A stretch of DNA of 42,561 nucleotides from a virus. The DNA is taken from UHGV virus genome UHGV-0163196; one strand, 5' to 3'. Under the pieces are notes generated by a model that saw nothing but the letters and a program-made list of their open reading frames with translations, was not told the DNA's origin and did not search any database. The translations under genes were made by a program, and so were the position numbers. The first letter of the stretch is position 1. Each line of letters opens with the position of its first letter. Below are positions 14,255 through 37,154 of this stretch, piece after piece.

Positions 14255-14737
14255 TTAAATCTTCCAGGAGATTTCTGCATTGCCGTTAGCGTCACCGGCC
14301 CCTGTGAATTCGGCGTTGGTCAGCGCCACGTTTTTGCCACTGACGGACGTGGACATGAAGCCGCCCAGCGGCACTTTGATGGATTCATCAGTGGAGACGA
14401 CAACGTATACCGGGTCGCCTTTTTTGATGGTGCTGGCATCAAAATCAGAACCGAGATTAACGGTCATGTAGCCACGCTTCATGGCGTCACCCGGGAAGTT
14501 CTTATCCGTCCCCACCTGGCGAACCATGTCTGGCTGCGATGTGGTCGGATACGGACGAACGTAGATCCCCTTCACCTTGTCGGCGGTGTCACCGTCCGCC
14601 AGCGGCACGAAAAAGCCGTCAGCGTCATATTTGCCAGCCAGACCATAGGCAGCGAAGGCGTTAGCGGATTTAAGGATCACCGGTTCGACGGTTAAGTCCT
14701 GCGGGCGAGAGATAGCCCCGGCAATGCCAACAGGCAT
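14255..14737 (-). CDS. Head decoration or scaffold-like structural protein
   Basis: 160 aa ORF immediately upstream of the major capsid gene; first helper gene left of the inserted island. Confidence 0.45.
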   Translation of the reverse strand: MPVGIAGAISRPQDLTVEPVILKSANAFAAYGLAGKYDADGFFVPLADGDTADKVKGIYVRPYPTTSQPDMVRQVGTDKNFPGDAMKRGYMTVNLGSDFDASTIKKGDPVYVVVSTDESIKVPLGGFMSTSVSGKNVALTNAEFTGAGDANGNAEISWKI

Positions 14738-14969
14738 CCGGTACAGGAATGCAAGGCTATTATTTAATCACCTGAAATATAAGGGTTTATTTGCAGTCTG
14801 ATTTTGCGTGTAGTCCATAGGCTGCTCTGTGATGTATGTCGCTGAATGGGGTAAGTTACTCAATAACAGATCTGTAGGATTTACAGGGGATTTCAATATG
14901 CAAGCTGTGCCACCAGCCCATTAGCGAACGGCGCTATTTTCCGCGCGTGACGTGTCACGGCGCTGGTGG

Positions 14970-15443
14970 TTATCCCATGAATTTGCGGTATACCTCCCCG
15001 GCTTCTTCGGCGGTTAGGTTCGTTGTTTCCGTTCTGATCGGACCACCATCCTTACCCGTTGTTTCAACCTTTAATTTGTTGGTGTAAGCGTCCCCGCACT
15101 CTTTCGCGGCCTGTTCGATAAGCTGTGCTGTTAATGCGTAATTCTTGATTGCCTCTGCACGGTTCGCCATGCGATCGAGCATACGCAGCCGGTACGCTTT
15201 GTTAGCGATAGGGATATCGGATATTTCACTCTGGAAGCGGGCGCGAGTGTGATTAAAGAGTTCTACCCATTTTTGGCTAAGATTTTTAGCCATTGTATTT
15301 TCAGGGTTGTAGGCCGATATCTGTTGCCGGGTAACAACGATGCCAAAATCTTGTTTTACAAGTTCGACGATTCTGGAAGGGGGTTCATAGCAAGCTAATG
15401 ATTGAATAATCATAACCTTAGCCATTGTTGGTAATGCCGCCAT
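14970..15443 (-). CDS. Small terminase-like protein (Sf6 gp1-like; candidate packaging-redirection factor)
   Basis: 157 aa; C-terminus KLKVETTGKDGGPIRTETTNLTAEEA resembles the Sf6 gp1 terminus (…VGKDGGAIQIETSP…); lies far from terL, inside the island. Confidence 0.55.
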   Translation of the reverse strand: MAALPTMAKVMIIQSLACYEPPSRIVELVKQDFGIVVTRQQISAYNPENTMAKNLSQKWVELFNHTRARFQSEISDIPIANKAYRLRMLDRMANRAEAIKNYALTAQLIEQAAKECGDAYTNKLKVETTGKDGGPIRTETTNLTAEEAGEVYRKFMG

Positions 15444-15535
15444 TGTTCACCTTTTGACAAAGGAAATAAAAGTAGCGTGCTGAGTTCTGCCCCTGCACCG
15501 CTACTTAAAGTTACAGATCACGTCATGGGTAGCTA

Positions 15536-16108
15536 TCACTCGCTCTCCAGATCCTCAAGAGAGAAGCAAATATGCTGTGTTGAAACAAAATAGCTCAGCA
15601 TGCTGCTTACCTTGTTTGACGCGACGTAATTATAATGCTCGACCATCTTTGCTAACGCGATAATCTCCCACCAGTAATGCTTAACTAGCTTTAGCGAAAT
15701 TAAATAAGCCCGGCTATAGAGCTTGTCGCAATCATCTCCTGTTGCGCCTTGGTTCCTGTATTGCTCAAGCACTTTCCGAATATCGCTGGCGTCTCCTTTC
15801 CCTCCATTTTCCAGTAGTTTTTCAGGTGGTTCGCCTGAGTAAAGGTGTTGTGCCATTACGCCAGAAAAAGAGACGACCATCTGCGCCAGTTCATCTTTTC
15901 TGACGGGGAGATGTGAGCATACCGCCCGGCAATTATCGACCTCTTTGCCGTTAGCCAGTCGAGCAATACGAAACTCATCAGCAATAGATATCTCAATTTG
16001 CCTAGCACCCGTAAACCACGCAGCCATCGCGTGACCGGCTTCATGGATCGCGATATTTCTGTCCCACATAGGGCTTTTGCTGAATTCAACAATTACGCCA
16101 TCACTCAC
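15536..16108 (-). CDS. Standalone HExxH zinc metallopeptidase-like protein
   Basis: 190 aa with the motif IAIHEAGHAMAAW (HEAGH, as in FtsH/M41 and ImmA-like peptidases) and no ATPase domain. Confidence 0.5.
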   Translation of the reverse strand: MSDGVIVEFSKSPMWDRNIAIHEAGHAMAAWFTGARQIEISIADEFRIARLANGKEVDNCRAVCSHLPVRKDELAQMVVSFSGVMAQHLYSGEPPEKLLENGGKGDASDIRKVLEQYRNQGATGDDCDKLYSRAYLISLKLVKHYWWEIIALAKMVEHYNYVASNKVSSMLSYFVSTQHICFSLEDLESE

Positions 16109-16170
16109 GCTGCTTACTCTCCGTTAGATCTGTCATTTAGTTAAATTGAACTGCGTTGGGGGAGTCTCCA

Positions 16171-16350
16171 TCACACACTCCCTTCAACTGCTATTGATTC
16201 CAGCGCCTTAGCCACCAGCCCACGAGCAATTTGATGGACAGACGGCGCGACGCCAATATCGGAGCGCTGGCGTTCGCGCTCCTGGATCTTGCAGATTGCG
16301 GCGAACTGGTCGCCAGAGAGTAATACCGGCTTAACGTTTGGCTTTTTCAT
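16171..16350 (-). CDS. Small hypothetical protein (59 aa)
   Basis: Internal start MKKPNVKPVLLSG… of the 112 aa track ORF; the other reading would overlap the upstream 64 aa gene. Confidence 0.3.
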   Translation of the reverse strand: MKKPNVKPVLLSGDQFAAICKIQERERQRSDIGVAPSVHQIARGLVAKALESIAVEGSV

Positions 16351-16525
16351 CCTGTTCACTCCAGAACTTTGCATTCGCTTCGTTGACTTTTTCCAGATTG
16401 CGGCATTCGTTGTTGAAGTTGTTGCGCATCCGCAATTGCTCGGCCTGTTCACGGCCAAAGAGTTTACGCCCGGCGCTTTGCGGGTTTCCTGCAGCCAATT
16501 TCGGGTCATAAATAGCCATGCTCAT
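16331..16525 (-). CDS. Small basic hypothetical protein (64 aa)
   Basis: ATG preceded by AAGGAG with good spacing; lysine/glutamate-rich and probably helical. Confidence 0.4.
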   Translation of the reverse strand: MSMAIYDPKLAAGNPQSAGRKLFGREQAEQLRMRNNFNNECRNLEKVNEANAKFWSEQDEKAKR

Positions 16526-16531
16526 TGCTCC

Positions 16532-17095
16532 TTACTTCGTGCGATGCCAGAAACTGGCGTTATCGGTGTTAATGCTGCGAATGGCGTCGCCTGTGGAGAG
16601 AATCTTCGGTGAAACGTTGTTAACTCGCATGTAGTCGCCAACCTGCTCCAGAACGTCGATAGCCTGATCAAGCTGAATCTCTGATAGCGGGGTCGGATGT
16701 ACCGCACTGAATGCCTCAGCGGGTGCGTAACGCAGCACATCAAGCGCAACAAGGCGAGGATCGGTATCAGGAAGGGCGTTGTCATACTTTGGTGCTACAG
16801 CGCGTACCAGGCGCATAAATTCAGCGTCCATTGCCGTTGGTGCGGTAGAGGTGGGAGAAGCGCCGCTGCCACTACGTGTAATCATGTCACTATCGCGGGT
16901 GTACATCCGGCGCAAGCGGTCTCCGGTTGCAATGCGTGTTGCACGTTCCTGCTTAAGCGTCGTTGCAAGATTCGCAATGACGAGAGCCACAGGAAGCGAG
17001 CAGGTCAGCCTTTCGAACGTATCATCGGAGTAAGTCACCTCGACGGTACCACCAGCGTTATCACTTTCCAGATTAACATTGGTTATCTGTTTCAT
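16532..17095 (-). CDS. Hypothetical protein (187 aa), first gene of the island's left module
   Basis: ORF following a promoter-like AT-rich region at 17100-17250; no recognisable motif. Confidence 0.45.
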   Translation of the reverse strand: MKQITNVNLESDNAGGTVEVTYSDDTFERLTCSLPVALVIANLATTLKQERATRIATGDRLRRMYTRDSDMITRSGSGASPTSTAPTAMDAEFMRLVRAVAPKYDNALPDTDPRLVALDVLRYAPAEAFSAVHPTPLSEIQLDQAIDVLEQVGDYMRVNNVSPKILSTGDAIRSINTDNASFWHRTK

Positions 17096-17378
17096 TGTTC
17101 ATAACCTTTTGCGTTGTTTAAATTCTGATCATTGCATAAATTGCAACATTAGTAAATATCATTGCGCATATTGAAATGGCAAATCGACGTGATACTATGA
17201 CGGTGATCCACCATTGTGTGATTGCATAAACATGGTTATCAAAAGCCCTCGCCTCTCCAGCGCGGGCTTTTTCTTTTCCGCTCCGCAAAGTTGCCGTTTC
17301 CGCATACTTTCACTTAGGCGACGCCCCTCCAAATTCGTAATTACTCTCCGAAAAAACTCTATAGATAAGCAAAAACAT

Positions 17379-17675
17379 GTTGGTTCAGTTGGTTCAGTTG
17401 GTTCAATTTGTAAAGATTGTTGTTTTATAAGGATTATTTCTTTCAGAGTGAACCAACAAAGCCCCGTTTTGAACCAACAAACGCTATTTTCGTGTTGGTT
17501 CAGTGGGAAAGATTTACAGGCCAGCCAGAAAAAGGCGTTGGTTCAATAGCGGCATTTGTTGGTTCAAAATGGGCGTTTGTTGGTTCGGTGTTGGTTCACT
17601 TACAAGCATGTAAATGCATTAAATACATACACTTATATTAATTAAATAGTTACTGAACCAACTGAACCAACAAAA
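17379..17675. repeat. Iteron cluster: candidate satellite replication origin
   Basis: At least 12 copies of the core TTGGTTCA in both orientations (for example 17379-17405 tandem, 17449-17457, 17470-17478, 17494-17502, 17654-17670), interspersed with AT-rich DNA, immediately downstream of the primase-helicase gene. Confidence 0.7.
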
Positions 17676-17696: not shown

Positions 17697-20477
17697 TTAT
17701 TCTTCACCCTCCATCTCGTCGGGTCGTAGCTGGAGCACATAAACGTTTATCTGGCGTCCATCAATTCGCGGGGATTTACGCTGATACCCCCTTCCGCTGG
17801 CTGGCGGTTTCAGCACCCCAGCCCCGGCCAGCACACGGGCAAACTGTTTCGCGTTGAATCCCTTCGCAATCTCACCTTCGAATGCTGCCGGGAACGTGTA
17901 GAACACTATCGGATCAGCATCATGCGCCCCTTTCTGACGGTACCCGGCCAAATCCCGAATCGGCATGTCAGCCGGGTCATAAGGGTAAGGTGCAAATCGG
18001 CTCAGTCCGTATGCATTAAGAAACGCCTCTGCCTGCTCGATGATCTGCTTATGCTCACGGTTCCCCGTGCCAAACTCTTTCACCCAGGCGTTAAAGCCAT
18101 GCTGGATGGCGTCCCGGCTTTCCTGCTCCCCCCAGCCAGTGACAGGCATCCCAAGCACCAGCGCCGCCTCCAGAATGGCGAACCGCTCGCCTACACGATG
18201 AACCTGTTCGCCATAATCAGCGGGGATAAGACTGCGCCAGCGCTCTTGCGCCGCTCTGACAGCTTGTTTTGCCTCCTGCTGGTGGCCTGCAAGCCATTTA
18301 ATCCATTCACGGCCTGCGGCTCCGTGGTTCGTCTGGTAAGCCTCTTTGAGTGCGTCGGCGTGTTGCTTCCCGTTCTGGTACTCATGGTGCGTTACTGATT
18401 TCTCCATCGGTAAATTAAGCAGCCGCACCAGTTGTCCGGCCTTAACTTTCAGCCCACCAGCAGAAAGAAACGTCTCAATGTCCATTTCCCCGGTACTGAT
18501 CGCCACGGTACGCCAGCGCTTTAACTCGCGGTTGCCTCCCTCCTTCGCCCCCTGTAGCTTTCCGGCACCGTTAAACAGCGTGTAAGCTGACGTGGCAACG
18601 TCTTTGGCGCTACTGCCCTGCCCCACTTCGTCCAGCGGTAACAGGCTATCGTTATGCGCTTCCGCTTCGTTGGCGATACCCAGCGCAGTACCGTACCAGG
18701 TGAGGCGCAGGGCATCCGGTTCACCGTATAAACTGCTGGCAATGTTGGCGGTCGTTGTCTTCCCTGCGCTGGACTGTTCGAAAAGGTGAACACCGAAACC
18801 GTCAGCGCCAACAAGCCCGATCAGCGGTGCAGACAGCGCAGCCGCAACACCCAGCATCATTGACGGGTTTCCCAACGCAAGACGCGCCACCGAATCACGC
18901 CAGCTTTCCGGCGTTCCACTGACGGTATAGCCACCAGCCGCCGCACTGCGGCCACTGAATAAAAGCGGTATCTCTGGATCACCAATAACATCACCATCCG
19001 GCATGATGTACGCCCCGCTGTGCCAGCCTGTGGTGTGGCTGATCTGCCACTCCTTGCCGCTACCGGTTCGCTGTAGCCAGTCGGCCAGAATTGCCCGCAA
19101 CGATGGTTTGGTCGTCACACTGACACCGCCGTTTTTCAGAGTTCGCCATCCCTCGCGGTCGCCAATGTCCTCCCAAGGAAGCGCACGGGTAACTTGCCCC
19201 CGATTGCCGGGAACGTCCCAACGCAGGATCAGAAAGCGCTGTCTGGCGTTATCACTCCCCGCACCAGCAATCTCCAGCGGAGAGCATAGCCACGCCTCGG
19301 TATTGATAATTTCCCCTGTGTCTTTGTCCACTTTCGGGGTGATCCAGTGAATGCCATCCGAACGGCTCTCTACTCGCGGTTTAAGGTCGTCGTCGATACC
19401 AGGGCTTTTTTTGCCGCCGTCGATTGCTGTCAGTGTCGCACCCACTTTCTTACCCTCCGGTTGATACATTGAGTCGTTAAATGCTGCTGTGGCCGCTTCG
19501 AGGCCGTATTGCTGGTGGTAGTCGTTCCAGTCCGCTTTATAGTCCACTGGTGGCATGGAAACCCAGCCAGAAACGGCTTTCGCGGCTTTCTCTGCGGCCT
19601 CCTTGCCAGTGTTAACTTTCACTCCTTTAATTCCGTCACTTTCGCCCATCTGGTCGTTATCTGCGGCAATGATGATTTGTGCCTGTGGGTACTTCCGGCG
19701 CATCACTTCGGCAACGGGTAGCAGGTTGCCCGCGTCAATTGCTGCCACTGCCAGCGCGTCCGGGCGCATCAGGTGAACTGAAAGGGCCGTCGCCAGCCCC
19801 TCGGCAATTAAAACGCTCTGCGGCGATTCTGGCGCGTTTACGGCATGATATGCCCCGCGCTTTGCTGAACCTGTCAGGAGTCGCTTCTCTCCCTGCGGTG
19901 TAATGGTTTGCGCTGCTGCCACTGCGCCGGATTCGTCCACCAGCTCCAGCAATAACGAACCATCAGGCATAACCGGATAGTTAAACCCGGTCAGCCCTTT
20001 TGATTGCAGGTAATCAGATTCGCCCTGTGTGGCACTCTGGCGCATTCCGGCATACAGACGGGCAAACGTAGCCCTTCGCTGCTCTGCGTCCCCTGCTGCC
20101 TGTTTCTGGCGCTCCTGCTCACGCTGCTGGCGGTCAGCTTCCAGTTGCTCCCTTCTATGGCTCGCTGCCACCGGGTCGGATTGCGCTGCCAGGTAATCAA
20201 TACCCAGCACGTCAGCGGCAAGCTGTGCCGCCTCCGTAGTGTCGCAGTTGTTAACCCGCTTGATTAAATCCAGCCCGTCACCAGCGCCACACTGGTTGCA
20301 GATAAAGCTACCGCGCCCGTTGTCGTCGAATCTGAAACGGTCTTTTCCACCACATGCAGGGCATGGAGAATGGCGGCGCGATGAATCAGGCACGTCGATA
20401 GACAACCCAGCCAGCACATAAGGCCAGCGCCCTGCTGCGGCGCTGGTCACTTCGCGGATAAGGTCGATATTACGCAT
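17697..20477 (-). CDS. P4 alpha-like primase-helicase (zinc-ribbon, TOPRIM, D5-like helicase)
   Basis: Zinc ribbon CPACGG…CNQCG, TOPRIM-like IIIAADNDQ, Walker A SSAGKTTT; ~925 aa. Start taken at MRNIDLIRE. Confidence 0.85.
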   Translation of the reverse strand: MRNIDLIREVTSAAAGRWPYVLAGLSIDVPDSSRRHSPCPACGGKDRFRFDDNGRGSFICNQCGAGDGLDLIKRVNNCDTTEAAQLAADVLGIDYLAAQSDPVAASHRREQLEADRQQREQERQKQAAGDAEQRRATFARLYAGMRQSATQGESDYLQSKGLTGFNYPVMPDGSLLLELVDESGAVAAAQTITPQGEKRLLTGSAKRGAYHAVNAPESPQSVLIAEGLATALSVHLMRPDALAVAAIDAGNLLPVAEVMRRKYPQAQIIIAADNDQMGESDGIKGVKVNTGKEAAEKAAKAVSGWVSMPPVDYKADWNDYHQQYGLEAATAAFNDSMYQPEGKKVGATLTAIDGGKKSPGIDDDLKPRVESRSDGIHWITPKVDKDTGEIINTEAWLCSPLEIAGAGSDNARQRFLILRWDVPGNRGQVTRALPWEDIGDREGWRTLKNGGVSVTTKPSLRAILADWLQRTGSGKEWQISHTTGWHSGAYIMPDGDVIGDPEIPLLFSGRSAAAGGYTVSGTPESWRDSVARLALGNPSMMLGVAAALSAPLIGLVGADGFGVHLFEQSSAGKTTTANIASSLYGEPDALRLTWYGTALGIANEAEAHNDSLLPLDEVGQGSSAKDVATSAYTLFNGAGKLQGAKEGGNRELKRWRTVAISTGEMDIETFLSAGGLKVKAGQLVRLLNLPMEKSVTHHEYQNGKQHADALKEAYQTNHGAAGREWIKWLAGHQQEAKQAVRAAQERWRSLIPADYGEQVHRVGERFAILEAALVLGMPVTGWGEQESRDAIQHGFNAWVKEFGTGNREHKQIIEQAEAFLNAYGLSRFAPYPYDPADMPIRDLAGYRQKGAHDADPIVFYTFPAAFEGEIAKGFNAKQFARVLAGAGVLKPPASGRGYQRKSPRIDGRQINVYVLQLRPDEMEGEE

Positions 20478-20811
20478 GGTTGCCTCCTGCCACGGTCGCG
20501 CCCATATCATTAATCATGCTTTGCCATATCTCGCGCCCGACGTCAGTCAATCCGTCCTTAGTGACGCAACGATCAAGAAGCTCGATCCCCACGGTTTCCC
20601 ACTGCGGGTAGAACACTTTCATGGCTGCCAGTGTGTAGCTATCGATCAGGCTGCGAACGCCTTTTACTCCATTGACGATTTCCACACGGACGGCGAGGCC
20701 GTCCGCATCAACCATGAAATAGTCCCCGCCGCTGGTGGCGGTAATGTGGTTATACAGTGCCGACGCATACTTATTCGCCAGCGCATTCAGTCGGAAATTT
20801 TTAGTAATCAT
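20470..20811 (-). CDS. Hypothetical protein (113 aa)
   Basis: ORF coupled to the primase start; no recognisable motif. Confidence 0.45.
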   Translation of the reverse strand: MITKNFRLNALANKYASALYNHITATSGGDYFMVDADGLAVRVEIVNGVKGVRSLIDSYTLAAMKVFYPQWETVGIELLDRCVTKDGLTDVGREIWQSMINDMGATVAGGNHA

Positions 20812-21925: not shown

Positions 21926-22101
21926 GCTGCCACCTCCTGAATACGAGTAATACGAACGTGCTTATAACCGCCTTTATTCGCCAGTAGTTGCGCAGTCGAT
22001 TTAGCTGTTTCTGGACTGGTGCTAGTCATGGTGTAGTGAATGCCGACGGTGTTACCGCGCTTGTTAACAGCGTATCCGTCGATCTGGAAGGTTTTACGCA
22101 T
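21922..22101 (-). CDS. Small hypothetical protein (59 aa)
   Basis: Hand-translated MRKTFQIDGYAVNKRGNTVGIHYTMTSTSPETAKSTAQLLANKGGYKHVRITRIQEVAA; below the ORF track length cut-off. Confidence 0.3.
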   Translation of the reverse strand: MRKTFQIDGYAVNKRGNTVGIHYTMTSTSPETAKSTAQLLANKGGYKHVRITRIQEVAA

Positions 22102-22972
22102 TTCCGACCTCCATTGCTAAACGGGACTGGATAGCTGCCGCTTTACTGCCTAATTGCAGGTAAGTACGAGTTATCGCAGGGTTGCTATGACCCAGCATTT
22201 CAGAGGCCACTAATAGGCCCTGTTCGCCACCTGCGGACATGAGGTTAAAGGCGGCTATTTTGCGGCTTGAGTAGGCGCTCAGGCGCAATTTAGCGTTAAT
22301 GAAACGGGTAAACCACGCCATGACGCCATGAAGTTTGCGCCAGATGGTTTGGCGAGTAACGCTACCTTCCAGACGTTGACAACGGTTACTTTCGATTTGA
22401 GAGCGGGAAAATACCAGGTCGTCCTCCACCAGATTCCGATCCTGACGGTCACGCAGCCGCTTGATAATGCCGGGGGGTAACTGTTTGGTGTCGTGCTTGA
22501 CGTCAGCCTTAGCCACCAGCCCGAACACAATCGCCTGTTCTTCGTCGTTCATATCGGCGGCCAGTTCATCACAGCCGATACTATCCCACTTCATGTAGGC
22601 GATATGGTCAGCGGCGAGCCGCGCGGCGTCCTTGCGCTGCTGGCGCACAATTTCAATACCTTTGCGGGTTGCCCGCGCTTCTGCGGCTTTGGTCTGTTTG
22701 GAAACGATAATTGTCGCCTGTCCAGTTTCCCAATTGATGCAGGAATAGCGCAGGTTGCAAACGTCGCTGGTACGCCAGCCGGTTACGGTCGCAATATCCC
22801 ACCAGAGCAACACCCAATCGGGCTGTGTCTGCTGGATGCGCTCGCGTAGCTTGCGCTGCTCGTCACGGTCATAGACAGGGGTCATGGTGCGACTGCCCTT
22901 TGTGCTCGCCGCTTTAACGACATTGCCGCGCAGCTCGCGGGCTTTGGCTGTCAGAGTCTGGAGGTTAAACAT
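22094..22972 (-). CDS. Second tyrosine recombinase (short phage-integrase family, no arm-binding N-domain)
   Basis: About 292 aa from MFNLQTLTAKAREL; C-terminal LGHSNPAITRTYLQ with a candidate catalytic Tyr and conserved Arg/His positions. Confidence 0.65.
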   Translation of the reverse strand: MFNLQTLTAKARELRGNVVKAASTKGSRTMTPVYDRDEQRKLRERIQQTQPDWVLLWWDIATVTGWRTSDVCNLRYSCINWETGQATIIVSKQTKAAEARATRKGIEIVRQQRKDAARLAADHIAYMKWDSIGCDELAADMNDEEQAIVFGLVAKADVKHDTKQLPPGIIKRLRDRQDRNLVEDDLVFSRSQIESNRCQRLEGSVTRQTIWRKLHGVMAWFTRFINAKLRLSAYSSRKIAAFNLMSAGGEQGLLVASEMLGHSNPAITRTYLQLGSKAAAIQSRLAMEVGNA

Positions 22973-23153
22973 GACGCACCTCCGGCACTGGCAGACGTGC
23001 GGCCAGAGACAAAATAAAGTGCGGCGCAAGGATGCGGCGGGCTTCGCGTTCGGTCGCAGCCTCAACGGACAGACGGCAAGGTTTGGCTTTTTTATCGTGG
23101 CGATTCAGCGCGAGAAAGCGCCAGGTGAATTTTGAGTGTGCGGATCTAGCCAT
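22965..23153 (-). CDS. Small protein (possibly Icd/Ash-like)
   Basis: 62 aa, MARSAHSKFTWRFLALNRHDKKAKPCRLSVEA…; recalled resemblance to small Icd-like prophage proteins only. Confidence 0.35.
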   Translation of the reverse strand: MARSAHSKFTWRFLALNRHDKKAKPCRLSVEAATEREARRILAPHFILSLAARLPVPEVRHV

Positions 23154-23473
23154 TTTTAGCGGCTCCTAGAACATATTGAAGGAGTCTCGCCAGATGCTGC
23201 TAAACATGGGTGGCGAGACGTGACGGGGTTAGCAGACTGGCGTTCTAGGAAACCAGCAGGCGTTAAGCCTCCCCACCACGCCCCGCCATAAATCGGGGGT
23301 ATGGTTGGTTTTCGGGCGTAAAAATACCGCTATACGGAAATCAGCGGCTACCCGCTAGAACGTTCAGGCTGCTAAACCCGGCACCCGTTTTGTGAGGTGC
23401 GAAATAATCATAACCACACTACCCCGTTAAGCGCAAGGGAAATATCCCCTGCGCCCACAATGCAAACTTGTGA
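23154..23473. promoter_or_regulatory. Repeat-rich intergenic region (candidate recombinase/regulator binding sites)
   Basis: Motifs CTAGAAC and GCTGCTAAAC recur in direct and inverted orientation at 23161-23205, 23227-23250 and 23353-23377. Confidence 0.4.
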
Positions 23474-24544
23474 TTAGTACCCGCGAGAAGCGTAAACTCG
23501 TGCCATGCCAGCCCAATGAGAGAAAAGAATTTCCCACTTAATTGGGTTGTAGGTAATACTTCCATCGACTGCGGCAGCATTCCATGCCCGATCAGAAATA
23601 GAGCTATCTTTAGCAGTTTTCCCCCATTCAACAATATCCCTTGCTAAAGCCTGTACACATGCTCGACTGACTACCTTTTCGTCAACGTACGCCCCAACAT
23701 CAGAGCATGACTCCATACTCATGTTCAGGCTATTTTTAAGGGACTCCAGCCCGGCCACTGACATAAAGCGACGACCATTAGCGTATGCAACACCGTCATT
23801 CCTGATAGTGAACTTAACAGTGTGGAATGCGTCAACAATCATCCGCTGCTCTGGCGTCGGGTTCTGCCATAGCACAAGGTTAATCTCTCTCTCAGAAGCT
23901 ATTGATTCTGCTTTCTCACGCTTAACTCGTGCATCCCGTTCTGCCTGGTATTGTTTTTGATTTTCATCATGAGCCTTTTGGTAACTAGAGGCTAATGCGT
24001 CTCTGTTTTTGGCAAATGCTGCAATGCTATTTTTGAAATCGCTTCTGCTAACCTTGTTTAACCCCATACTCCAGCGGTCATTTTCGTAATCATCATAAAT
24101 GGCATCAACTTTTGCCGGATTACTCAGCACAGTCGCCAGATTAACCGGAATTTTAGCCATCTCGTCACTGATTCTCGCTACATGTTCGAAAGTCGATATA
24201 GAGCCAACTTCATGACTCCCATACTCATGATAAGCGGCATAAAAAATTGGAATAGATTGAGGTTTTTCGTTCACTGACTTAATGATGCTTTTTTCATCAC
24301 ATGACTGTTCACCCCATTTGAAAACACTTTTCCCACCATTTTTGTATGTGTTGCAATCATCAATACCCAAACGAACCAGCGCATCCCATCCGGGCCGTTT
24401 CTTGTAATCCTCGCTCTTGACAACATGCATTGTGGTTAGGGCTTTCGCAGGATCTAACTTGCCAGCGGTACAAGACACGATAGGAAAGGCCAGAGAAGCG
24501 CAGGCTGCTATCCTGAAAAGGCTCGTCAATCTTTCTTTTTTCAT
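23474..24544 (-). CDS. Lipoprotein of unknown function (island cargo)
   Basis: 356 aa; N-terminus MKKERLTSLFRIAACASLAFPIVSC carries a signal peptide with lipobox-like Cys; AT-richer than its surroundings; flanked by ~0.3 and ~0.9 kb non-coding DNA. Confidence 0.6.
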   Translation of the reverse strand: MKKERLTSLFRIAACASLAFPIVSCTAGKLDPAKALTTMHVVKSEDYKKRPGWDALVRLGIDDCNTYKNGGKSVFKWGEQSCDEKSIIKSVNEKPQSIPIFYAAYHEYGSHEVGSISTFEHVARISDEMAKIPVNLATVLSNPAKVDAIYDDYENDRWSMGLNKVSRSDFKNSIAAFAKNRDALASSYQKAHDENQKQYQAERDARVKREKAESIASEREINLVLWQNPTPEQRMIVDAFHTVKFTIRNDGVAYANGRRFMSVAGLESLKNSLNMSMESCSDVGAYVDEKVVSRACVQALARDIVEWGKTAKDSSISDRAWNAAAVDGSITYNPIKWEILFSHWAGMARVYASRGY

Positions 24545-24708
24545 CGTCCTAATGCTCTTTCAAACCAAGAATGTAGGACATAGTAAATTGTGGTTAATGG
24601 CAAGTCGATATAAAGGCCGGGTTATTGGCTTCGGTGCCAATATCATTTCTCCGAAATTTCATAACGCCTGTAATCGCTCGTTTCCCCATCTTGGGGACAT
24701 TTCAAAAC

Positions 24709-24828
24709 TGCGAATCAAAGTGCGAATGGAACTGCGAATTCGCAAAGAGAGAGCGCCGCTCAAAGCAGGCCGGATAAGGCTTCGCGGACATATTGCGAAT
24801 GCGAATCCACCAGAAACGAAACGCGAAT
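24709..24828. repeat. GCGAAT repeat cluster including the palindrome TGCGAATTCGCA
   Basis: Six copies of (T)GCGAAT within 120 bp; the 12-bp palindrome at 24733-24744 also occurs twice in the helper terS gene. Confidence 0.55.
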
Positions 24829-25384
24829 CACCCATAAACAAAACCGATACGCAGGGAGCGTACTGCCCGTATTCAATCGGCCGAAAAGTCAGCCGATTAA
24901 AATCATGCCCGGCTATCCCCTGAAATTTCAGGAGATCGAGAGCCACCAGCAGAGAACCGTTCATGCCATCGGTAACTTGCAGCCCGAAGCTCAAATCTGA
25001 GCGTTGACCGCCAGCCAGAAGAAACCATTTTAAATCCCGCGCCTTCTCTTTGGATGAACAGGGTTACTCCCCGTAATGCTGTGAACTGCCACGATGATTC
25101 GGGGTTGTGTTGCGCTGGCCTTTGAGTCCCGCACAAACACTGACCCACAAAATTTTTGTAGGTGACTGGCCCTCTTGATGAGGTGCTGTTTTGCGTAACC
25201 CTTAATGAGTTGTGCAAAGGCTCAACCCTTCAAAAGGGTTGCCTAACCACCGGCGATAGTAATAACCGCCAACCTATGAACACTATGAACACCTTTGAGC
25301 ATTTTTCTATAAACATTCCACTACTGCCCTATTTGATGCCTTTCTCTGGCTGGCCTGTGTAAGTTACCGTTGCTGGGAACTGAC

Positions 25385-25793: not shown

Positions 25794-27023
25794 TTACACA
25801 ACCAGCCTCAAGCCCTTATCGCCGCTGGTCTCCAGTATTTCGCCACACTCTGCGGCCTCGATAAAGTCCCCCCACCATTGCATTAAAACCCGGCGTTTTT
25901 CCAGATAGTCGCTACGGTTATAAACATTTCGAATCGCATCGGCGCTTTTGTGAGCGAGTGCAGCCTCAATCACATCAGGGTTGAACCCCTCGTCATTTAA
26001 AACTGTAGATGCCAACGCCCTGAACCCATGAGGAACAATCAGCCCTTTAAACGACGTTTTGTGTATCCCGGCCTGAGTCGCACAGCGTGAGATCGGCTTA
26101 TTTTCTTTTCGCCATGAGGGGAAAACATAATCGCAGCGCTTCCACTTTTCGGCCTCTTTAAGCACGTTTATAGCCTGGCTCGATAATGGGACTACGTGGG
26201 GGCGCTTTCCTTTCATCCGGCTTGCAGGGATTTGCCAGATTGAGTTATCAAAATCAATCTCATTCCAGAGAGCGCCGCCAGCCTCCGAAGGCCGGACCAT
26301 CGTAATGATCTGGAATAATAATGCCAGCTTTGATGGCTCCCATAAGCTCAACTCGTTCCATGCGCTTAAAAATTCGGGCAACCGCTCTTTCTGTAAAGTC
26401 GCTCTTGGCTCGTTTTTTTCAGCCGGGAATGCTTTACCAATTTTCGATAGCGGGTTGTGCTCAATAACCCCAATGTTTACCGCATAATCCATTATGGCGT
26501 TGATGGTAATAACCATTTTCGTAAGCGTTGATGGCCTTTCCCTGAAAGGTTTAAAAGCCTGAATAGTATCGGCTGCGTTTATTTTATGTACCGTGGTATG
26601 CCTAAAAATCGTGGAAAGATGCTTCAACGTCACATTGTGCGATTCAAGCGTGTTGCTTCTCGCACCTTCTTTAATCTTGATTTTTAGCCATTCATCGGCA
26701 ACGGCCTGAAATGACTGCGCGTACATTTTACGCTGTTCATTCCTGGCATCTTTTTTGACTTCGTTCGGATCTATCCCTCGCGCTACCATACGGCGCAGTT
26801 TCGAACGTTCCTCCCTCGCTTCGGACAAAGTAAACTCCGGGTATCGTCCAATAGTATAGGTTTGTCTCTTCTTCGTTACCGGGTGTACATACCGAAAACG
26901 CCATGACTTACCGCCCCGGCTTGTGATGTAAAGCAACAAACCGAAACCATCGTGCAAACTGAAATCCTTGCCCTGTGCCTTCGCGCTTTTCACTTCGACG
27001 CTAGTTAGTGGCCTAACAATCAT
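25794..27023 (-). CDS. int: P4-type tyrosine integrase
   Basis: 409 aa; N-terminal arm-binding domain typical of P4-like integrases (…DGFGLLLYITSRGGKSWRFRY…) and a C-terminal catalytic domain. Confidence 0.85.
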   Translation of the reverse strand: MIVRPLTSVEVKSAKAQGKDFSLHDGFGLLLYITSRGGKSWRFRYVHPVTKKRQTYTIGRYPEFTLSEAREERSKLRRMVARGIDPNEVKKDARNEQRKMYAQSFQAVADEWLKIKIKEGARSNTLESHNVTLKHLSTIFRHTTVHKINAADTIQAFKPFRERPSTLTKMVITINAIMDYAVNIGVIEHNPLSKIGKAFPAEKNEPRATLQKERLPEFLSAWNELSLWEPSKLALLFQIITMVRPSEAGGALWNEIDFDNSIWQIPASRMKGKRPHVVPLSSQAINVLKEAEKWKRCDYVFPSWRKENKPISRCATQAGIHKTSFKGLIVPHGFRALASTVLNDEGFNPDVIEAALAHKSADAIRNVYNRSDYLEKRRVLMQWWGDFIEAAECGEILETSGDKGLRLVV

Positions 27024-27237
27024 TCAACACCTCTCTGGCTACCATGTAATGCAAACGGCGCATGATTCTCTTTCTAGTCCCTCATGTACCGAATCAAAGC
27101 GAAATCCGGCGAATAAATCCGCACATGTTCGGAGTGTCATTTTTATGGTTCAGGCCAGTAACGCCGTATGATTCCGAACGATAACGCACTGATTAATAGA
27201 TATTAGTTGCATAAGGTACAGATATGCAGTCATTGGA

Positions 27238-29246: not shown

Positions 29247-30564
29247 TCTCGATATCCTCGTCGGTAATGGATGCCCCGATGCCGGTGACGTCAGAGTTTT
29301 CGCGCAGGTCGGTCATCGCCGCCTTACGCGTCATCAATCCGTCGCCCAGCGCGGTACTGATCGCGTTGGTGGTGTTTACGGCCACCGTTGATCGGTCAAC
29401 GTCTGACATTTGCCATAGCGGGTTAAACTCAAACGTGAAATCGTCCGGCAGCGGCTTTCCGAGTTCCGAGCGGTGCATAATGTCCAGTATCCGGCGCATC
29501 GGCAGCCGTAAGCGGCGCTCCTGCAATGAGCTCACCCGGTCGTAATAGTTGGCGAGGTCTGCATCACCAGTAGAGAAGCCTTTCGGGGATTGACCGAACA
29601 GGCGTACCAGCGGGATACCAACGGCACCGCTGATCTGCTCAGCAAACTGCGAAAGAATGTCATCCAGACCGCTGAAGCTGTACTGGTGGGTTTCGAACTT
29701 ATCCCGCGAGTCCATGAGCGTCATGCCTTCATTGCTCTGGAACTGGCGGATCAGGTCGATGTTCTTCAGCAGCGCCTCGAACGCCGGGCCGCCAAGCGCG
29801 ATAAGCTCGCGCAGCTTCTCCACGCTGTAGGTACGCAGATGTGCTTTGTAGACCAGCTGCGCCGCGCCGACAGTGGCGCTGTCGAACGCAGTAAGCCGAT
29901 CCCAGATACGCTCTACAACCGACATTCCCCATTCGTTTTCGGTCATCTTCTGCTGGAATGGCAGCGTGACGCCATCAAAGCGGATCAGGCGGCTGTGATG
30001 GATGCGCCAGGCCGGAATGCCCGTTGCGGTGGTCACCACGTCGTAAAACTCAGGCTTGCCGAGGTCCGGCCCCATCTCTTTAATGCGGCGTGTCAGCACC
30101 GGGTTAATCATCCAGCGGTCGAGCGGGAGAATGCCCTTAAACTTGCCCTCGCCAATGGTTTCGAGTCGCAGCGGGGTCATTGGTGCTTGCCCCTCGATCA
30201 TGATGAAGCCGACCGCGCCGCCGTAGAGGCGCGACCATTTCAGCACGTCGTTCAGCGCATCCCAGATCTGCAACTCATCCAGTTGCGCTTCGAGGGTGCC
30301 ACGGTCTTTGGCGTCAATCTCCGAAGTGATGCGAATGCCCTTTCGGGTCATATCGTCCGGGATAGCGTCGACCGCTTCACCGATAACCCACGAACCGCGA
30401 TATGACCATTCCACCAGCATGCGGTTGCGGCTGGTGGAGTTCGCCCGGTAGGTCGATGCTGAATGCTGGTTAGGCGTCTGCATCCCAACGCGGGCGACGA
30501 AGTTCTCGTAGCTGTCAGCGGTGGGCTGTGCCGTTCGCTGAGAGGATTGCTTGTTTCGTGCCAT
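29095..30564 (-). CDS. Portal protein
   Basis: About 490 aa ORF directly downstream of terL; start probably at MARNKQS. Confidence 0.7.
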   Translation of the reverse strand: MARNKQSSQRTAQPTADSYENFVARVGMQTPNQHSASTYRANSTSRNRMLVEWSYRGSWVIGEAVDAIPDDMTRKGIRITSEIDAKDRGTLEAQLDELQIWDALNDVLKWSRLYGGAVGFIMIEGQAPMTPLRLETIGEGKFKGILPLDRWMINPVLTRRIKEMGPDLGKPEFYDVVTTATGIPAWRIHHSRLIRFDGVTLPFQQKMTENEWGMSVVERIWDRLTAFDSATVGAAQLVYKAHLRTYSVEKLRELIALGGPAFEALLKNIDLIRQFQSNEGMTLMDSRDKFETHQYSFSGLDDILSQFAEQISGAVGIPLVRLFGQSPKGFSTGDADLANYYDRVSSLQERRLRLPMRRILDIMHRSELGKPLPDDFTFEFNPLWQMSDVDRSTVAVNTTNAISTALGDGLMTRKAAMTDLRENSDVTGIGASITDEDIENAEDEAPPGIGELGDKPPESPGGDPISNEPTADSAGGRGYRKWALRWFKR

Positions 30565-31967
30565 CAGGCTTGCCTCCCGAGCAATTCCCAAATATCCATT
30601 GTTGTATCGGTCGGCGCGAACGCCATTATGAAAGCGTCGGCAATGTTAGGTGAGGGGATATCGCGCTTAGCCAAATCTTTCTTGCTTTCAACCATAACCC
30701 TACCGTTACGATCAAAGTCTCGGTGCGGGGTCGTCAGCTCAAGCTTTAGTTTCTCCAGGTGCGGGCACGATGAATCGATACTTATCAACTCATCAACAGG
30801 ATATTCCTCTCCATTTTTCACCGCGTTGAACGTATTACGAAAGCGATCAGCTACCAGCCACCATGCCTGGGCTTTCAGATTGGCAAAGAAGTCTTTATTC
30901 GGAATGCCGTTATATTCAGAATCTGGCTCGTTCACACCAGCGCCAGCATTGAAGCGTTGATAATTAACTGGTCGTGAATAAGGATTTTCACGTCGTCTGT
31001 CTTCGTTAATTTCCGAGAATTTAGCACCAGCAGAAGCGCCAACACCAATGGAGTCATAAACGATATCAGCACTTCTCTCTGTGGCTGCCTGATATGCCCG
31101 CTGGCAGCTTTTAAGAAGCTCGTCTTCTTTTGCCTTCCATTCATCAGCCCAATACACAACGGAGCCATGACGATAAACATTGGAGCACTTATCCGCACCG
31201 CTATCGGCAACGTCGAAGCCTATTCGCTTTCGTCCGTTTGGCTCAAAACCAAGCACCTTATGGGCATCTATTGCAGCCTCAATCCACGAAAGTTTAATAA
31301 TTGCCGCGTCATCATCAGATTCGGGAACCCCCATATAAACGTGGTCAAACCCCTCCGGATCACGACGCTTTGCAGCCGAGATAACCTTAAGCATGGTGTC
31401 TGAGAGGAATGGGTTTTCGTCGTAATTGATTTTTCTCACCAACGTATCTTCTGGTGGATCAACAACGAAATTACGCCATACAAAGTCAGTCACCAGACCA
31501 GGGTTAAAAATAAACCAGCATTCAGATCCGCTTTTACGAATGGTTGGTTCCAGTATCTTCCACTGGTATTCCGTTAGTGCATGGGCTTCTTCAAGCCACA
31601 AAACGCTGATACCTTCCAGGGATTTAATTTCTTCGATATTGCGCCATAAACCGTAAAACACGAATTCTGAGCCAGTGACCCGGTTGATAATTTTATTATT
31701 CAGAATTCGGAAGCGATGCCGCAGCCCAAACCGTTCAATCTGTATTTTGAGCAGGGTATAAACCGACTCTTCGATTTTGTTCTGAATTTGACGTGCGCAA
31801 CAGAAACGCAGGTTGTATTTATTTGCCAGAAAGACAGCAAACCCAGCAGCATCCCATGACTTTGACGATGAGCGCCCACCAAAAAGTACTTTATTTCGAG
31901 CCTGTGTCGTCCAGAAGTTCCTTAGGGCCGGATTCAGGGTCGGTTTGGATGTCAGAGTAGAAGTCAT
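30564..31967 (-). CDS. terL: Terminase large subunit (start uncertain)
   Basis: ATPase plus nuclease architecture (…VLFGGRSSSKSWDAAG…, …VLWLEEAH…); overlaps the 3' end of terS. Confidence 0.8.
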   Translation of the reverse strand: MTSTLTSKPTLNPALRNFWTTQARNKVLFGGRSSSKSWDAAGFAVFLANKYNLRFCCARQIQNKIEESVYTLLKIQIERFGLRHRFRILNNKIINRVTGSEFVFYGLWRNIEEIKSLEGISVLWLEEAHALTEYQWKILEPTIRKSGSECWFIFNPGLVTDFVWRNFVVDPPEDTLVRKINYDENPFLSDTMLKVISAAKRRDPEGFDHVYMGVPESDDDAAIIKLSWIEAAIDAHKVLGFEPNGRKRIGFDVADSGADKCSNVYRHGSVVYWADEWKAKEDELLKSCQRAYQAATERSADIVYDSIGVGASAGAKFSEINEDRRRENPYSRPVNYQRFNAGAGVNEPDSEYNGIPNKDFFANLKAQAWWLVADRFRNTFNAVKNGEEYPVDELISIDSSCPHLEKLKLELTTPHRDFDRNGRVMVESKKDLAKRDIPSPNIADAFIMAFAPTDTTMDIWELLGRQA

Positions 31968-32646
31968 TAAGGTCACGATCTCCATTACCGTCATCAACGC
32001 CAGCATCACGACGAAGGCGATCCGCTTCCAGAGACACTTTGTCAGTGGAGGCGAGCCGATGCTCTATAGATGCCTTTGTGAATTCCAGCGACTCAATGCG
32101 GGCCGTGTTACGGTGCATGGCTTTTTGCGCAGATGAAATTAGCTCGTGAAGATTATTGGCGGTATCGCCATCAGCTATTTCAAGCTCAGTCTGCCAGCGG
32201 CCAATATTTTCAGCAGCGGTAAGGTTCGCCGCACGCAACCAGAAAAGCTCATCATCAAGAGTGAGCGCCTGAGCATCCTCGGTAATGGCATCAGATAGAA
32301 GCATTCGGCGTCCATAGCCACCATGCTTCAATGCGTTCTGATTTCCGGGTCTGGAATTATAATGAGCGCGTTTCGTTTCTGGTGAGTTTGATGGTTTTGC
32401 GACTTCGCAGTTATCCACTAAGCCCGCTGGTGGCTTACTCTTTGCCACTTTCTCCTTTTGCGAATTCGCAGTTTTATTCGCACTTTTCTTTTGCGAATTC
32501 GCACTACCATTCGCAATTTTGATATAGCGCTTTGCAGTCGAGTAATTCAGTCCCTGCGCTTCACACCATTCTTTGGGGGAAATGCCGGTTTTGGCATGTT
32601 CGGACAGGAACCGTTGCTGAAGCTCGCCCCAGTCCGGCTTTGCCAT
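31891..32646 (-). CDS. terS: Terminase small subunit (HTH N-terminus)
   Basis: 251 aa directly upstream of terL; N-terminal HTH-like segment (ISPKEWCEAQGLNYSTAKRYI); contains palindromic DNA repeats. Confidence 0.55.
   Translation of the reverse strand: MAKPDWGELQQRFLSEHAKTGISPKEWCEAQGLNYSTAKRYIKIANGSANSQKKSANKTANSQKEKVAKSKPPAGLVDNCEVAKPSNSPETKRAHYNSRPGNQNALKHGGYGRRMLLSDAITEDAQALTLDDELFWLRAANLTAAENIGRWQTELEIADGDTANNLHELISSAQKAMHRNTARIESLEFTKASIEHRLASTDKVSLEADRLRRDAGVDDGNGDRDLNDFYSDIQTDPESGPKELLDDTGSK
32459..32516. repeat. Palindrome TGCGAATTCGCA x2 plus ATTCGCA half-sites inside terS (candidate pac/TerS recognition site)
   Basis: Full copies at 32459-32470 and 32492-32503, half-sites at 32476-32483 and 32508-32516; encodes the repeated peptide ANSQK. 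Confidence 0.4.
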
Positions 32647-34517: not shown

Positions 34518-35027
34518 TCAGCCTGCGCATTCACCACAATTCTTGTTGTAACTTCCGAATATTTTTTCCCTTTCCGAAGTCACAAATTTTATAGCATCCT
34601 CTTTGCGTTTAAATGTCTTGAAGGCCGCAGTTTTTCTATTAACAAAAACACGAGCATGCCAAAGCCTATCTCTCGAGTGGAAACAAACACCACGACAACC
34701 AGACCGGTTCCTTTTCGAGGTTATTGTGTTCATGTTGTTTTGCGATCTGCTAACAAGCCTAAGATTTGATATCCTGTTGTCGTCTCTTATGCCATTCACA
34801 TGATCTATTTCTAAGCCGCTATTTATTTCGCCATTGCACAAAATCCACGCCAGACGATGAGCAAAGTATCTTTTACCTCCTAAAGATATTTGCCTGTAAC
34901 CGAACGAATTCAGCGAACCAGCAATCATGCCAGGCTTAGATCTTCCTGTTTTTACCTTCCACACGAAGATGCCGGTAGATGGATTAAATGACAAAGATTC
35001 TTTAATGCGTTCACTTGTTAAAAGCAT
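34518..35027 (-). CDS. HNH endonuclease with AP2-like DNA-binding domain
   Basis: 169 aa with HNH motif (…EIDHVNGIRDDNRISNLRLVSRSQNN…) and a C-terminal AP2-like region; AT-rich; sits in the Q-S cargo slot. Confidence 0.7.
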   Translation of the reverse strand: MLLTSERIKESLSFNPSTGIFVWKVKTGRSKPGMIAGSLNSFGYRQISLGGKRYFAHRLAWILCNGEINSGLEIDHVNGIRDDNRISNLRLVSRSQNNMNTITSKRNRSGCRGVCFHSRDRLWHARVFVNRKTAAFKTFKRKEDAIKFVTSEREKIFGSYNKNCGECAG

Positions 35028-36380: not shown

Positions 36381-36655
36381 TGGACAAACACCCTCCCATT
36401 GTTAACCAATTTTTTAAGGGTAAGCACAATGGCCCGATCCATTTCAGCCCTTCGCTCTTCCCTGCTCATATCTCTCCCATTATCAATTCTTGAATGACAA
36501 TCAACACATAGCGCAGCAGTAAGGCAATCATCTACTTTAATCCCAACCCCCTTCCCTTCATTTCTATGAGCGGCCTGAACTCCGTATCTTCCGCAAAGAA
36601 CGCAAAATTCAATATCCCTGACTGCCTGAAGCCATTTTTTGCTTCTAAACATCAA
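36377..36655 (-). CDS. Cys/His-rich zinc-ribbon nin-region protein (DUF1364-like)
   Basis: 92 aa with CVLCG…C…CVDCH spacing. Confidence 0.45.
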   Translation of the reverse strand: MMFRSKKWLQAVRDIEFCVLCGRYGVQAAHRNEGKGVGIKVDDCLTAALCVDCHSRIDNGRDMSREERRAEMDRAIVLTLKKLVNNGRVFVQ

Positions 36656-37154
36656 TCCCCTCCAAAAAACGTCGGTACGCTGATTTGTTTTTTATGTTGC
36701 ACACTGTCTGCGCACAAACACCAAATTCTTTGGCTATATCTCTGTATTTTCCTTTTGATTTATATATTGATTTCACTTGTTCTGGCGTTAGTTTGCAGAA
36801 GTGATGATTAAACCCATGAACAAGCAATCCGGAATCAAATCCATGTTTCGCATTTTCTGTTCGCGTTACCCACTCAAGATTTTCAACTTTATTATTAAGT
36901 TTATTTCCATCCTTGTGATTAACTTCCGGTTTGCCATCTGGGTTATCAATAAATACTTCTGCAACAATTCTGTGAACCATTTTATATGATGTTCTTTTCC
37001 CGCCACCTGGATACAGACCGACAAATGCATATCCTCCTGGTTTAATGCCATGAGATAATTTTTTTGATTTACGGCATGAAATGATGTCTCCATTTTCAGT
37101 TACTTTATATATACCCTCAAAGCCGGGGATATCTTTTTCTTTAACATCACTCAT
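36645..37154 (-). CDS. HNH homing endonuclease (NUMOD4-like N-terminus)
   Basis: 169 aa; GFEGIYKVTENGDII followed by an HNH core (…EVNHKDGNKLNNKVENLEWVTRTENAKH…); AT-rich relative to flanking nin genes. Confidence 0.75.
   Translation of the reverse strand: MSDVKEKDIPGFEGIYKVTENGDIISCRKSKKLSHGIKPGGYAFVGLYPGGGKRTSYKMVHRIVAEVFIDNPDGKPEVNHKDGNKLNNKVENLEWVTRTENAKHGFDSGLLVHGFNHHFCKLTPEQVKSIYKSKGKYRDIAKEFGVCAQTVCNIKNKSAYRRFLEGIDV

Follow-up and report, generated by a model that had tools for sequence, protein, structure and literature searches.

Five minus-strand genes at positions 14970-17095 of the virus genome UHGV-0163196 (42,561 nucleotides (nt); the whole of this stretch is called the window below) are the late zone of a ~12.5 kb P4/phage-inducible chromosomal island (PICI)-type satellite embedded in its helper, and the last of the five encodes a 157-amino-acid (aa) protein that, judged from sequence, is very probably a small terminase subunit (TerS). 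We consider it probable that the five genes form the late operon of this satellite, in which a TerS of the DUF2280 family recruits helpers with a large terminase subunit (TerL) of 537-540 aa, a stand-alone peptidase is the cargo of a variable slot and a trio of 187-, 62- and 59-aa proteins is the operon head. An earlier reading made from the letters only (the sequence-only reading) had described a satellite end module of five genes with a TerS-like protein, an HExxH peptidase and three proteins of no assigned function. Its coordinates and gene sizes were right, with purifying selection on four genes and protein homologues for the fifth, the peptidase; the attachment (att) sites and the gene order of the island place the module at the attL end. 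Embedding in the helper's own late operon is a setting absent from that reading, and a configuration already published (PMC10111431).

The terminal gene very probably encodes a small terminase

The 157-aa protein matches Pfam DUF2280 (PF10045) over model positions 1-102 of 103 (E = 6.6e-39; 132.6 bits against a cut-off of 24), a family that PHROGs lists as unknown, and homologues of it occur in 328 phage records. In nine phage or prophage loci (Cronobacter phage ENT47670, two Escherichia coli and three Klebsiella prophages, the ECONIH5 helper, a Dickeya prophage and a metagenomic phage contig) the gene next upstream of terL encodes a DUF2280 homologue with 62-67% identity, and in each inspected locus the gene falls between the lysis cassette and the series terL, portal, MuF, scaffold, cement and major capsid protein. 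The satellite copy has no adjacent terL, as expected of a satellite.

Residues 119-157 of the protein, here called tail A (pattern ...TGKDGGPI.TE...L..EAAE.Y.K.MG), are 61.5% identical (E = 5e-15) to the C-terminus of a Terminase_2-type TerS of phage vB_EcoM-606R2. Tail A ends three types of TerS body, namely Terminase_2 (190 aa, vB_EcoM-606R2), phrog_51 (205 aa, EC2001 helper) and DUF2280 (ECONIH5 helper, E. coli and Klebsiella prophages), and is paired in five of five cases with TerLs of 537-540 aa that start MPLPFPFDF... and share 82-98% identity with one another; the partners of the DUF2280 proteins with tails B, C and D are unrelated TerLs of 499, 546 and 519 aa. Since tail type co-varies with TerL family across three body types, the tail follows TerL and not the TerS body, which fits the C-terminal TerL-binding role established for the TerS proteins of lambda and P22 (PMC9611059). 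From this co-variation we infer that residues 119-157 are a TerL-docking module.

TerS proteins follow a common plan, with a protomer of 15-21 kDa, a helix-turn-helix (HTH) at the N-terminus, a helical-hairpin oligomerisation core, a stalk and a flexible C-terminal moiety (PMC9611059). An AlphaFold2 (AF2) model of the 157-aa protein, built with 35 homologues, opens with three short helices (residues 6-43) and continues with a long helical hairpin (53-98) and another helix (102-117); residues 119-144 are disordered and 145-156 form a terminal helix. This predicted secondary structure resembles the four-region TerS plan, with an HTH-like N-domain at about residues 1-50. Identity to helper-type DUF2280 TerS proteins climbs along the protein, from 44-52% in the HTH region (1-50) through 63-69% in the core (51-118) to 72-82% in the tail, a gradient that one would expect if the satellite TerS recognised other DNA while recruiting the same motor. 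Overall, the satellite TerS is 65.6% identical to that of the ECONIH5 helper, with a near-identical tail. Synteny with terL, the shared TerL-associated tail and the predicted TerS-type plan support the TerS-like assignment of the sequence-only reading.

The island lies in the late operon of its helper

Modules of two kinds make up the window, which is a prophage: a lambdoid early region (CI-like repressor, CII-like, O-like and DnaB-like proteins, RusA, Q-like antiterminator, holin and endolysin) and E217/SEN34-type myovirus structural genes (terS, terL, portal, MuF, DUF2213 scaffold/protease, cement protein, major capsid protein and tail genes). Homology between the window and related phages ends at 14753 and restarts at 27209; together with the comparison with an empty site in Citrobacter phage Omnitron, from which the att sites were deduced, this break delimits the ~12.5 kb element between the DUF2213 stop codon (27238) and the cement start codon (14737). 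The empty site (attB) reads ...GCATCC GGTACAG ATATGC..., in which GGTACAG is the 7-bp crossover core (Table 1). The core genes of the island are co-oriented with the helper late operon. Integration makes the sequence immediately upstream of the cement start codon satellite-derived.

Alongside the genes listed in Table 1 the island has, between the integrase gene and the C4 RNA, an AlpA-like gene, with a weak Pfam AlpA match (0.0065) and the AlpA name in RefSeq siblings. All 11 TGAACCAAC iterons, against 0.36 copies expected, fall within the presumed satellite replication origin, where there are also long inverted repeats. Of 5,426 complete E. coli genomes, four carry this island at this insertion site, as do several further assemblies. 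Related islands use other places as well, a chromosomal site and, in Klebsiella, the position immediately behind the cement gene. In two Klebsiella pneumoniae loci (L021 and L022) an island with a 409-aa integrase directly follows the helper cement gene and no major capsid gene was called there; these islands may interrupt the helper capsid gene. The 356-aa island protein with a lipoprotein-type signal peptide, kept in many sibling islands, is a possible accessory or surface-exclusion gene product.

Table 1 Coordinates of the island, its late module and selected helper features in the window
Feature	Position	Strand	Remarks
attL	14734-14753		Core GGTACAG at 14740-14746, 2 nt upstream of the helper cement start codon (14735-14737)
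157-aa gene (DUF2280 TerS)	14970-15443	-	Last gene, next to attL
190-aa peptidase gene	15536-16108	-	GTG start; HEAGH at residues 22-26
59-aa gene	16171-16350	-	Overlaps the upstream gene by 20 nt; 58-aa coding sequence in sibling RefSeq genomes
62-aa gene	16331-16519	-	Open reading frame (ORF) opens at 16525 (64 aa)
187-aa gene	16532-17095	-	Shine-Dalgarno-like motif
Module control region	17100-17271	-	Terminator-like hairpin 17271-17241 then TTTTG, promoter-like hexamers and TTATGCAAT repeats, upstream of the 187-aa gene
Presumed satellite replication origin	17379-17671		11 exact TGAACCAAC iterons in both orientations; adjoins the primase gene
TOPRIM+DUF927 primase	17697-20510		Alpha-type; island
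Second, internal tyrosine-recombinase-like gene	22094-23065	-	~291 aa in siblings; kept in all related islands, besides the terminal integrase
Icd-like ORF	22965-23153		Island
C4/CI-type antisense RNA (P4/P1-type immunity RNA)	23206-23293	-	Rfam RF01695, 75 bits; just upstream of the Icd-like ORF
356-aa protein gene	23474-24544	-	Lipoprotein-type signal peptide (…LAFPIVSC…); no family match
Putative pac mimic	24709-24825	+	Six TGCGAAT repeats including TGCGAAT-N5-TGCGAATTCGCAAAG; 18-mer CACCAGAAACGAAACGCG 62 nt later
Arm-type tyrosine integrase	25794-27023		Island
attR	27209-27228		Core GGTACAG at 27215-27221, 16 nt downstream of the helper DUF2213 scaffold/protease stop codon
Resident helper TerL, PBSX-type	30564-32009	-	481-aa ORF; 467 aa in RefSeq siblings
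Resident helper TerS, 251 aa, 933W-type	31891-32646	-	phrog_370, 1.7e-75; tblastn to annotated Stx-phage terS genes; without tail A
TGCGAAT array and 18-mer inside helper terS	32367-32515		Array at 32515-32457; same 18-mer CACCAGAAACGAAACGCG 73 nt later
HNH endonuclease genes (two)	34518-35027; 36645-37154	-	Flank the RusA and Q-like genes at the helper early/late junction

The module genes and their expression

The five genes span 14970-17095 exactly, from the last base of the 157-aa stop codon to the first base of the 187-aa start codon, with intergenic gaps of -20 to 92 nt and a Shine-Dalgarno-like motif upstream of each. For the 62-aa gene, the start at 16519 is preferred on account of AAGGAG 8 nt before the ATG and the annotations of RefSeq siblings. 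A 112-aa ORF at 16171-16509 was rejected as spurious, its in-frame 3' part being the 59-aa gene according to sibling annotations and the ratio of non-synonymous to synonymous polymorphism (pN/pS). Measured against 10-11 sibling islands, pN/pS was 0.02-0.22 for the 187-, 62/64-, 59- and 157-aa genes (157 aa, 0.02-0.05; 187 aa, 0.03-0.06; 62 aa, 0.05-0.12; 59 aa, 0.04-0.22), so these four are real coding genes under purifying selection; the peptidase gene had no DNA match in the same islands.

No convincing terminator was found within or after the module on the minus strand, and co-transcription of the five genes is plausible. The hairpin and T-run at 17271-17241 separate the origin from the module. 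The TTATGCAAT repeats were considered as a common operator and rejected, as they are not statistically enriched. The module would be readable both from its own promoter and by antiterminated helper late transcription, the helper having a Q-like antiterminator, and its transcripts may run on into the helper cement and capsid genes.

A constant operon head and a variable slot

Sibling islands have in common the 187-62-59 trio and, usually, terS, and vary in the slot between the 59-aa gene and terS. This slot holds a short peptidase in the window and L025; a long peptidase, a 21%-identical allele, in ET791 and ABWA45; a Neck1 paralogue (72-74% identical to the helper's own) with a long peptidase in L006-L013 and L030, the last of which also has a 112-aa secreted protein; six baseplate/spike paralogues and no peptidase in EC2001; and a short peptidase in L024, where a 114-aa secreted protein stands in place of terS. 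With such varying content the five genes are not one obligate system, and the slot is the 'dynamic late zone' of the published description of helper-embedded PICIs (PMC10111431). The sequence-only reading had suggested that the genes together form a single redirection, capsid-remodelling or abortive-infection system; this suggestion is not upheld, because siblings keep the trio and differ in the rest, and because no module protein had a match in PADLOC-DB 2.0 at E ≤ 0.01.

The paralogues of helper Neck1, baseplate, plug and spike proteins in sibling slots are 31-77% identical to their helper counterparts (L006 7537-8130, L030 7928-8512, L019 19767-23002, L020 9761-12944) and hint at satellite-specific changes of the virion or of host range. 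In L024, a 13.5 kb metagenomic contig, a quartet of 184-, 61- and 57-aa genes and the peptidase gene is translationally coupled, with the integrase directly upstream and an HTH_3+Peptidase_M78 (ImmA-like) gene on the other strand; this contig may be a circularly permuted excised form.

The trio is the invariant, satellite-specific operon head and most likely encodes regulators or adaptors. The 187-aa gene is the first after the primase and origin in most of the related islands examined, including those of Klebsiella, and its product has 39 homologues, all from Enterobacterales, with a variable N-domain and a conserved C-domain; a match in phage genomes was not found. In its AF2 model (pLDDT 68) an N-domain of three strands and a long helix is followed by a disordered linker (62-90) and a helical C-domain (91-183). 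NCBI names some homologues 'XRE family transcriptional regulator'; no HTH model, solved structure or fold was matched by the 187-aa protein in Pfam, NCBIfam, PDB (single sequence and profile) or a fold search. The 62-aa protein had no significant family match in Pfam, PHROG, PADLOC, NCBIfam or PDB, and the 59-aa protein had no match in the same five collections. The PDB searches were run with single sequences for all five proteins and with alignment profiles for DUF2280, the 187-aa protein and the peptidase, of which only the peptidase profile matched (FtsH), and an NCBIfam scan of the module proteins gave nothing above cut-off. Profile and structure searches, which were among the checks proposed with the sequence-only reading, identified the peptidase as M41, placed the 157-aa protein in DUF2280, and left the 187-, 62- and 59-aa proteins with no relatives of known function.

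The slot of the window encodes a stand-alone FtsH-type protease

The 190-aa protein, which the sequence-only reading had taken for an HExxH metallopeptidase, is more precisely a stand-alone FtsH-type (M41) protease domain of a rare family, with an intact zinc site. It has 11 close protein homologues (50-98% identity), and an exhaustive profile search of 1.84 billion representatives gathered a family of 70 representative clusters, all of 54-293 aa. Pfam Peptidase_M41 (PF01434) is matched by 31 of 50 family representatives (best E = 4.7e-27), and the family profile matches the FtsH protease domain 2di4 in PDB over positions 9-172, essentially the whole domain (E = 2.8e-20). H22, E23, H26, G83 and D106 are invariant in the 50 representatives; the first three belong to the HEAGH zinc site, for which D106 is the putative third ligand. 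The protease domain fills the protein, which has neither an AAA+ module nor a membrane span and so lacks what marks FtsH proper. Among 50,697 phage genomes, none encodes this protein family. The peptidases of the islands fall into two subtypes of ~190 aa (short) and ~235 aa (long) that are 21-23% identical, and identity within a subtype is 51-55% across diverged islands.

A relationship between the island peptidase and PhageMetallopep (PF18894) was rejected, as there is no BLAST similarity and the motifs differ (HEAGH against HELYH). PhageMetallopep genes, a family that PHROGs labels 'transposase', directly precede the DUF2280 terS in eight of the nine terL loci (L014-L018, L023, L028 and, by homology, ENT47670/L004; for example L014 6349-6969, L016 6335-6970, L023 6848-7468 and L028 3383-3970); the ninth, L029, starts at terS.

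The resident helper has another terminase and a candidate pac array

As the sequence-only reading had stated, the helper has its own terS-terL pair (Table 1). Tail A has no similarity to the resident TerS, and only the C-terminal half of the resident TerL is related (34% identity) to the 537-540-aa TerL family; among the complete genomes and the window, a matching 537-540-aa TerL is present in the EC2001 and ECONIH5 helpers and missing from the window, ET791 and ABWA45. The absence of the tail A TerL family from the resident helper makes redirection of this helper's terminase doubtful here. 

The island also carries a TGCGAAT array that recurs inside the helper terS, followed in both places by the same 18-mer and collinear between them, and these are the only two TGCGAAT clusters in the window. 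The island stretch is probably non-coding, and a plus-strand ORF across it (24417-24923) was rejected as a terS remnant, its protein match having E = 0.13 and the frames differing between the two matched pieces. Since the island and terS arrays are in different reading frames, the shared element is a DNA motif. Klebsiella phage RothD, with a terS product 65% identical in protein sequence, retains the array, and in the terS of phage P12620-1 (48%) its position is taken by five to six copies of another heptamer, GTACGCA. If terS contained a pac site bound by TerS, one would expect such an array, varying together with TerS. Sibling islands keep the island copy, including that of EC2001, whose helper has the other terminase. 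These observations suggest that the island may be equipped for packaging in two ways, using a pac mimic with helpers that have the 251-aa TerS and its own TerS with those that have the 540-aa TerL. The PICI-like elements (PLEs), which combine dedicated proteins with pac mimicry (PMC11417361), are a precedent for such a combination.

Proposed mechanism and alternatives

In the reading that we favour, a TerS ring of the usual kind would be built from the DUF2280 body and would bind a packaging site of the satellite itself, and the conserved tail A would dock on the 537-540-aa TerL of helpers with this head module in common; satellite concatemers would then be loaded into helper capsids by the motors of the helper in headful fashion, with some three to four 12.5-kb copies per ~42-kb head. 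In this genome the satellite would more likely use its copy of the terS array, and its own TerS would serve with helpers that have another terminase. The stand-alone protease, having no unfoldase, would probably cut flexible segments of a helper or host protein, and the trio would supply regulators or adaptors. An extended version, which we think unlikely, sees a satellite that hedges between helpers with a common head module and interchangeable terminases; its TerS carries a plug-in tail for 537-540-aa-TerL helpers, and its pac-array mimic serves 251-aa-TerS helpers. The protease would in that case be a new hijack effector, with a flexible part of some helper protein of packaging or assembly, or of a substrate of host FtsH (for example the helper CII-like regulator), as its point of cleavage, and the trio would be its specifiers.

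Several observations weigh against the favoured reading. The AF2 model of the 157-aa protein is only moderately confident (pLDDT 67, pTM 0.33) and no solved TerS was matched by sequence in the PDB searches with the single sequence and the DUF2280 profile; the helical hairpin expected of a TerS oligomerisation core is predicted at this confidence. Tail A fits neither the TerS nor the TerL of the resident helper. The satellite terS and its surroundings yielded no repeat array fit to serve as the satellite's pac site (a 14-mer common to the satellite terS and int was rejected as within chance), no homologue of a capsid-size or helper-TerS-inhibitor protein was recognised, and the ABWA45 island persists although its satellite terS is lost. 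The 190-aa protein, searched alone, gives only sub-threshold Pfam matches around its motif (M41, 15.5 bits against a cut-off of 29.9).

The mismatch with the resident helper raises the possibility, which we consider rather unlikely, that the satellite TerS is idle here and matters only with other helpers, the island being packaged through the TGCGAAT array as a pac mimic read by the 251-aa TerS. The absence of tail A and of its TerL family from the resident helper, the collinear arrays and 18-mers, their persistence in RothD and in sibling islands, the different repeat at the same place in the more distant terS, and pac-site mimicry by PLE (PMC11417361) all speak for this; however, the array within terS is only a candidate pac site, the island copy might be what decay has left of a captured terS, and the satellite TerS is under strong purifying selection in islands within this helper type. 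The likeness to the ECONIH5 helper TerS (65.6% overall, tail near-identical) would also suit an interference decoy, which would titrate helper TerL through tail A or form mixed rings with a helper DUF2280 TerS and so block helper packaging, as satellites are known to do by Rpp (PMC6739421) and Gpi (PMC11417361). We regard such a decoy as improbable, because an HTH domain that is diverged yet intact and under purifying selection is more in keeping with altered DNA specificity than with lost DNA binding, and Klebsiella relatives likewise end their late zone with a TerS-like gene.

Other alternatives concern the peptidase. Satellites are carriers of defence hotspots, and abortive infection involves HExxH proteases such as Lit; given these precedents, the variable slot, two peptidase alleles just 21% identical and a rare family that phages lack, the peptidase could, by itself or together with its neighbours, be an anti-phage defence or abortive-infection effector. 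This is a still weaker candidate explanation, since PADLOC models match no module protein, the peptidase recurs in islands diverged to 51-55% identity, sometimes translationally coupled to the trio, and sibling slots hold paralogues of helper neck, baseplate and spike genes, which argues that the slot carries morphogenetic cargo. The peptidase and the 187-aa protein might also be an ImmA/ImmR-like regulatory pair in which the protease cuts the 187-aa linker and switches the late operon; the two genes share an operon and are tightly coupled in L024, and the 187-aa protein has two domains joined by the disordered 62-90 linker and homologues that NCBI labels as XRE-family regulators. We find such a pair very improbable, however, because EC2001 and Klebsiella islands have a 187-aa homologue without any peptidase, no HTH model matches the 187-aa protein, and M41 is not the family of ImmA (M78).

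Comparison with known satellites

The island is of a known kind, a helper-embedded PICI with a satellite-encoded TerS. Helper-embedded PICIs were described by Tommasini, Mageeney and Williams in 2023, with four zones (integration, immunity/Bro, replication and late; PMC10111431). The present island resembles them in lying co-oriented within the helper late operon, in its int-AlpA genes, C4 RNA immunity, primase and origin, and in a dynamic late zone with captured helper genes (PMC10111431); it differs in its intergenic site, between the DUF2213 stop and the cement start, whereas the published ones lie inside a late gene, and in a helper of another type, with E217/SEN34-type myovirus structural genes. 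The accessions and family names do not occur in the part of the supplement text of PMC10111431 that was available. The published arm motif, a doubled TGTATTGC, flanks the attP centre at distances of about 81 bp (upstream) and 132 bp (downstream) (PMC10111431). It is absent near the att sites of this island, the window having just two TGTATTGC copies, neither of them by an att site.

In the packaging module of Staphylococcus aureus pathogenicity islands (SaPIs), a satellite TerS homologue encoded at the end of the late operon pairs with helper TerL and provides a new DNA specificity. Our island likewise carries a small terminase homologue at the end of its late operon, but it has a Gram-negative host, the TerS is of the DUF2280 family, the island is embedded in the helper, and the TerS tail fits a TerL family absent from the resident helper; homologues of SaPI-type Ppi or CpmA/B were not recognised in the island. 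Satellite late genes re-aim the helper packaging machinery also in EcCICFT073-type PICIs, where Rpp is an adaptor that binds helper TerS (PMC6739421), and in PLE, where Gpi inhibits TerL and GpsAB and pac mimicry are present in addition (PMC11417361). Unlike Rpp and Gpi, the protein encoded here is a complete TerS, and no sequence similarity to solved Rpp structures was found.

With P4 the island shares a C4/CI-type immunity RNA, an Icd-like gene, AlpA, an alpha-type primase with an adjacent iteron origin and an arm-type tyrosine integrase; it differs in having a pac-type TerS rather than using helper cos and in integrating into a prophage, not a tRNA gene, and no sid, psu or delta family was among the Pfam, PHROG and NCBIfam matches of the module proteins. 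The peptidase resembles FtsH/M41 in its HEAGH zinc site, the conserved Asp in a G-x-x-D motif and the C-terminal helical part of the protease domain, but has no AAA+ unfoldase and no membrane anchor, is 190 rather than ~640 aa long and belongs to a family of short proteins only. What is new is the DUF2280 TerS with a swappable tail, the embedding site and helper type, the recurrent stand-alone M41 cargo and a possible second packaging route.

Implications for satellite biology

If the rule that links tail to TerL is true, the helper motor that a satellite can recruit would be readable from a 39-residue tag, which would aid the prediction of satellite-helper pairs and transduction routes in Enterobacterales and the engineering of packaging specificity. 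For conflicts of the satellite with its helper or its host, the stand-alone FtsH-type protease is a new and tractable candidate, and the apparent double provision of an own TerS and a pac mimic would illustrate a satellite's way of coping with mosaic helpers.

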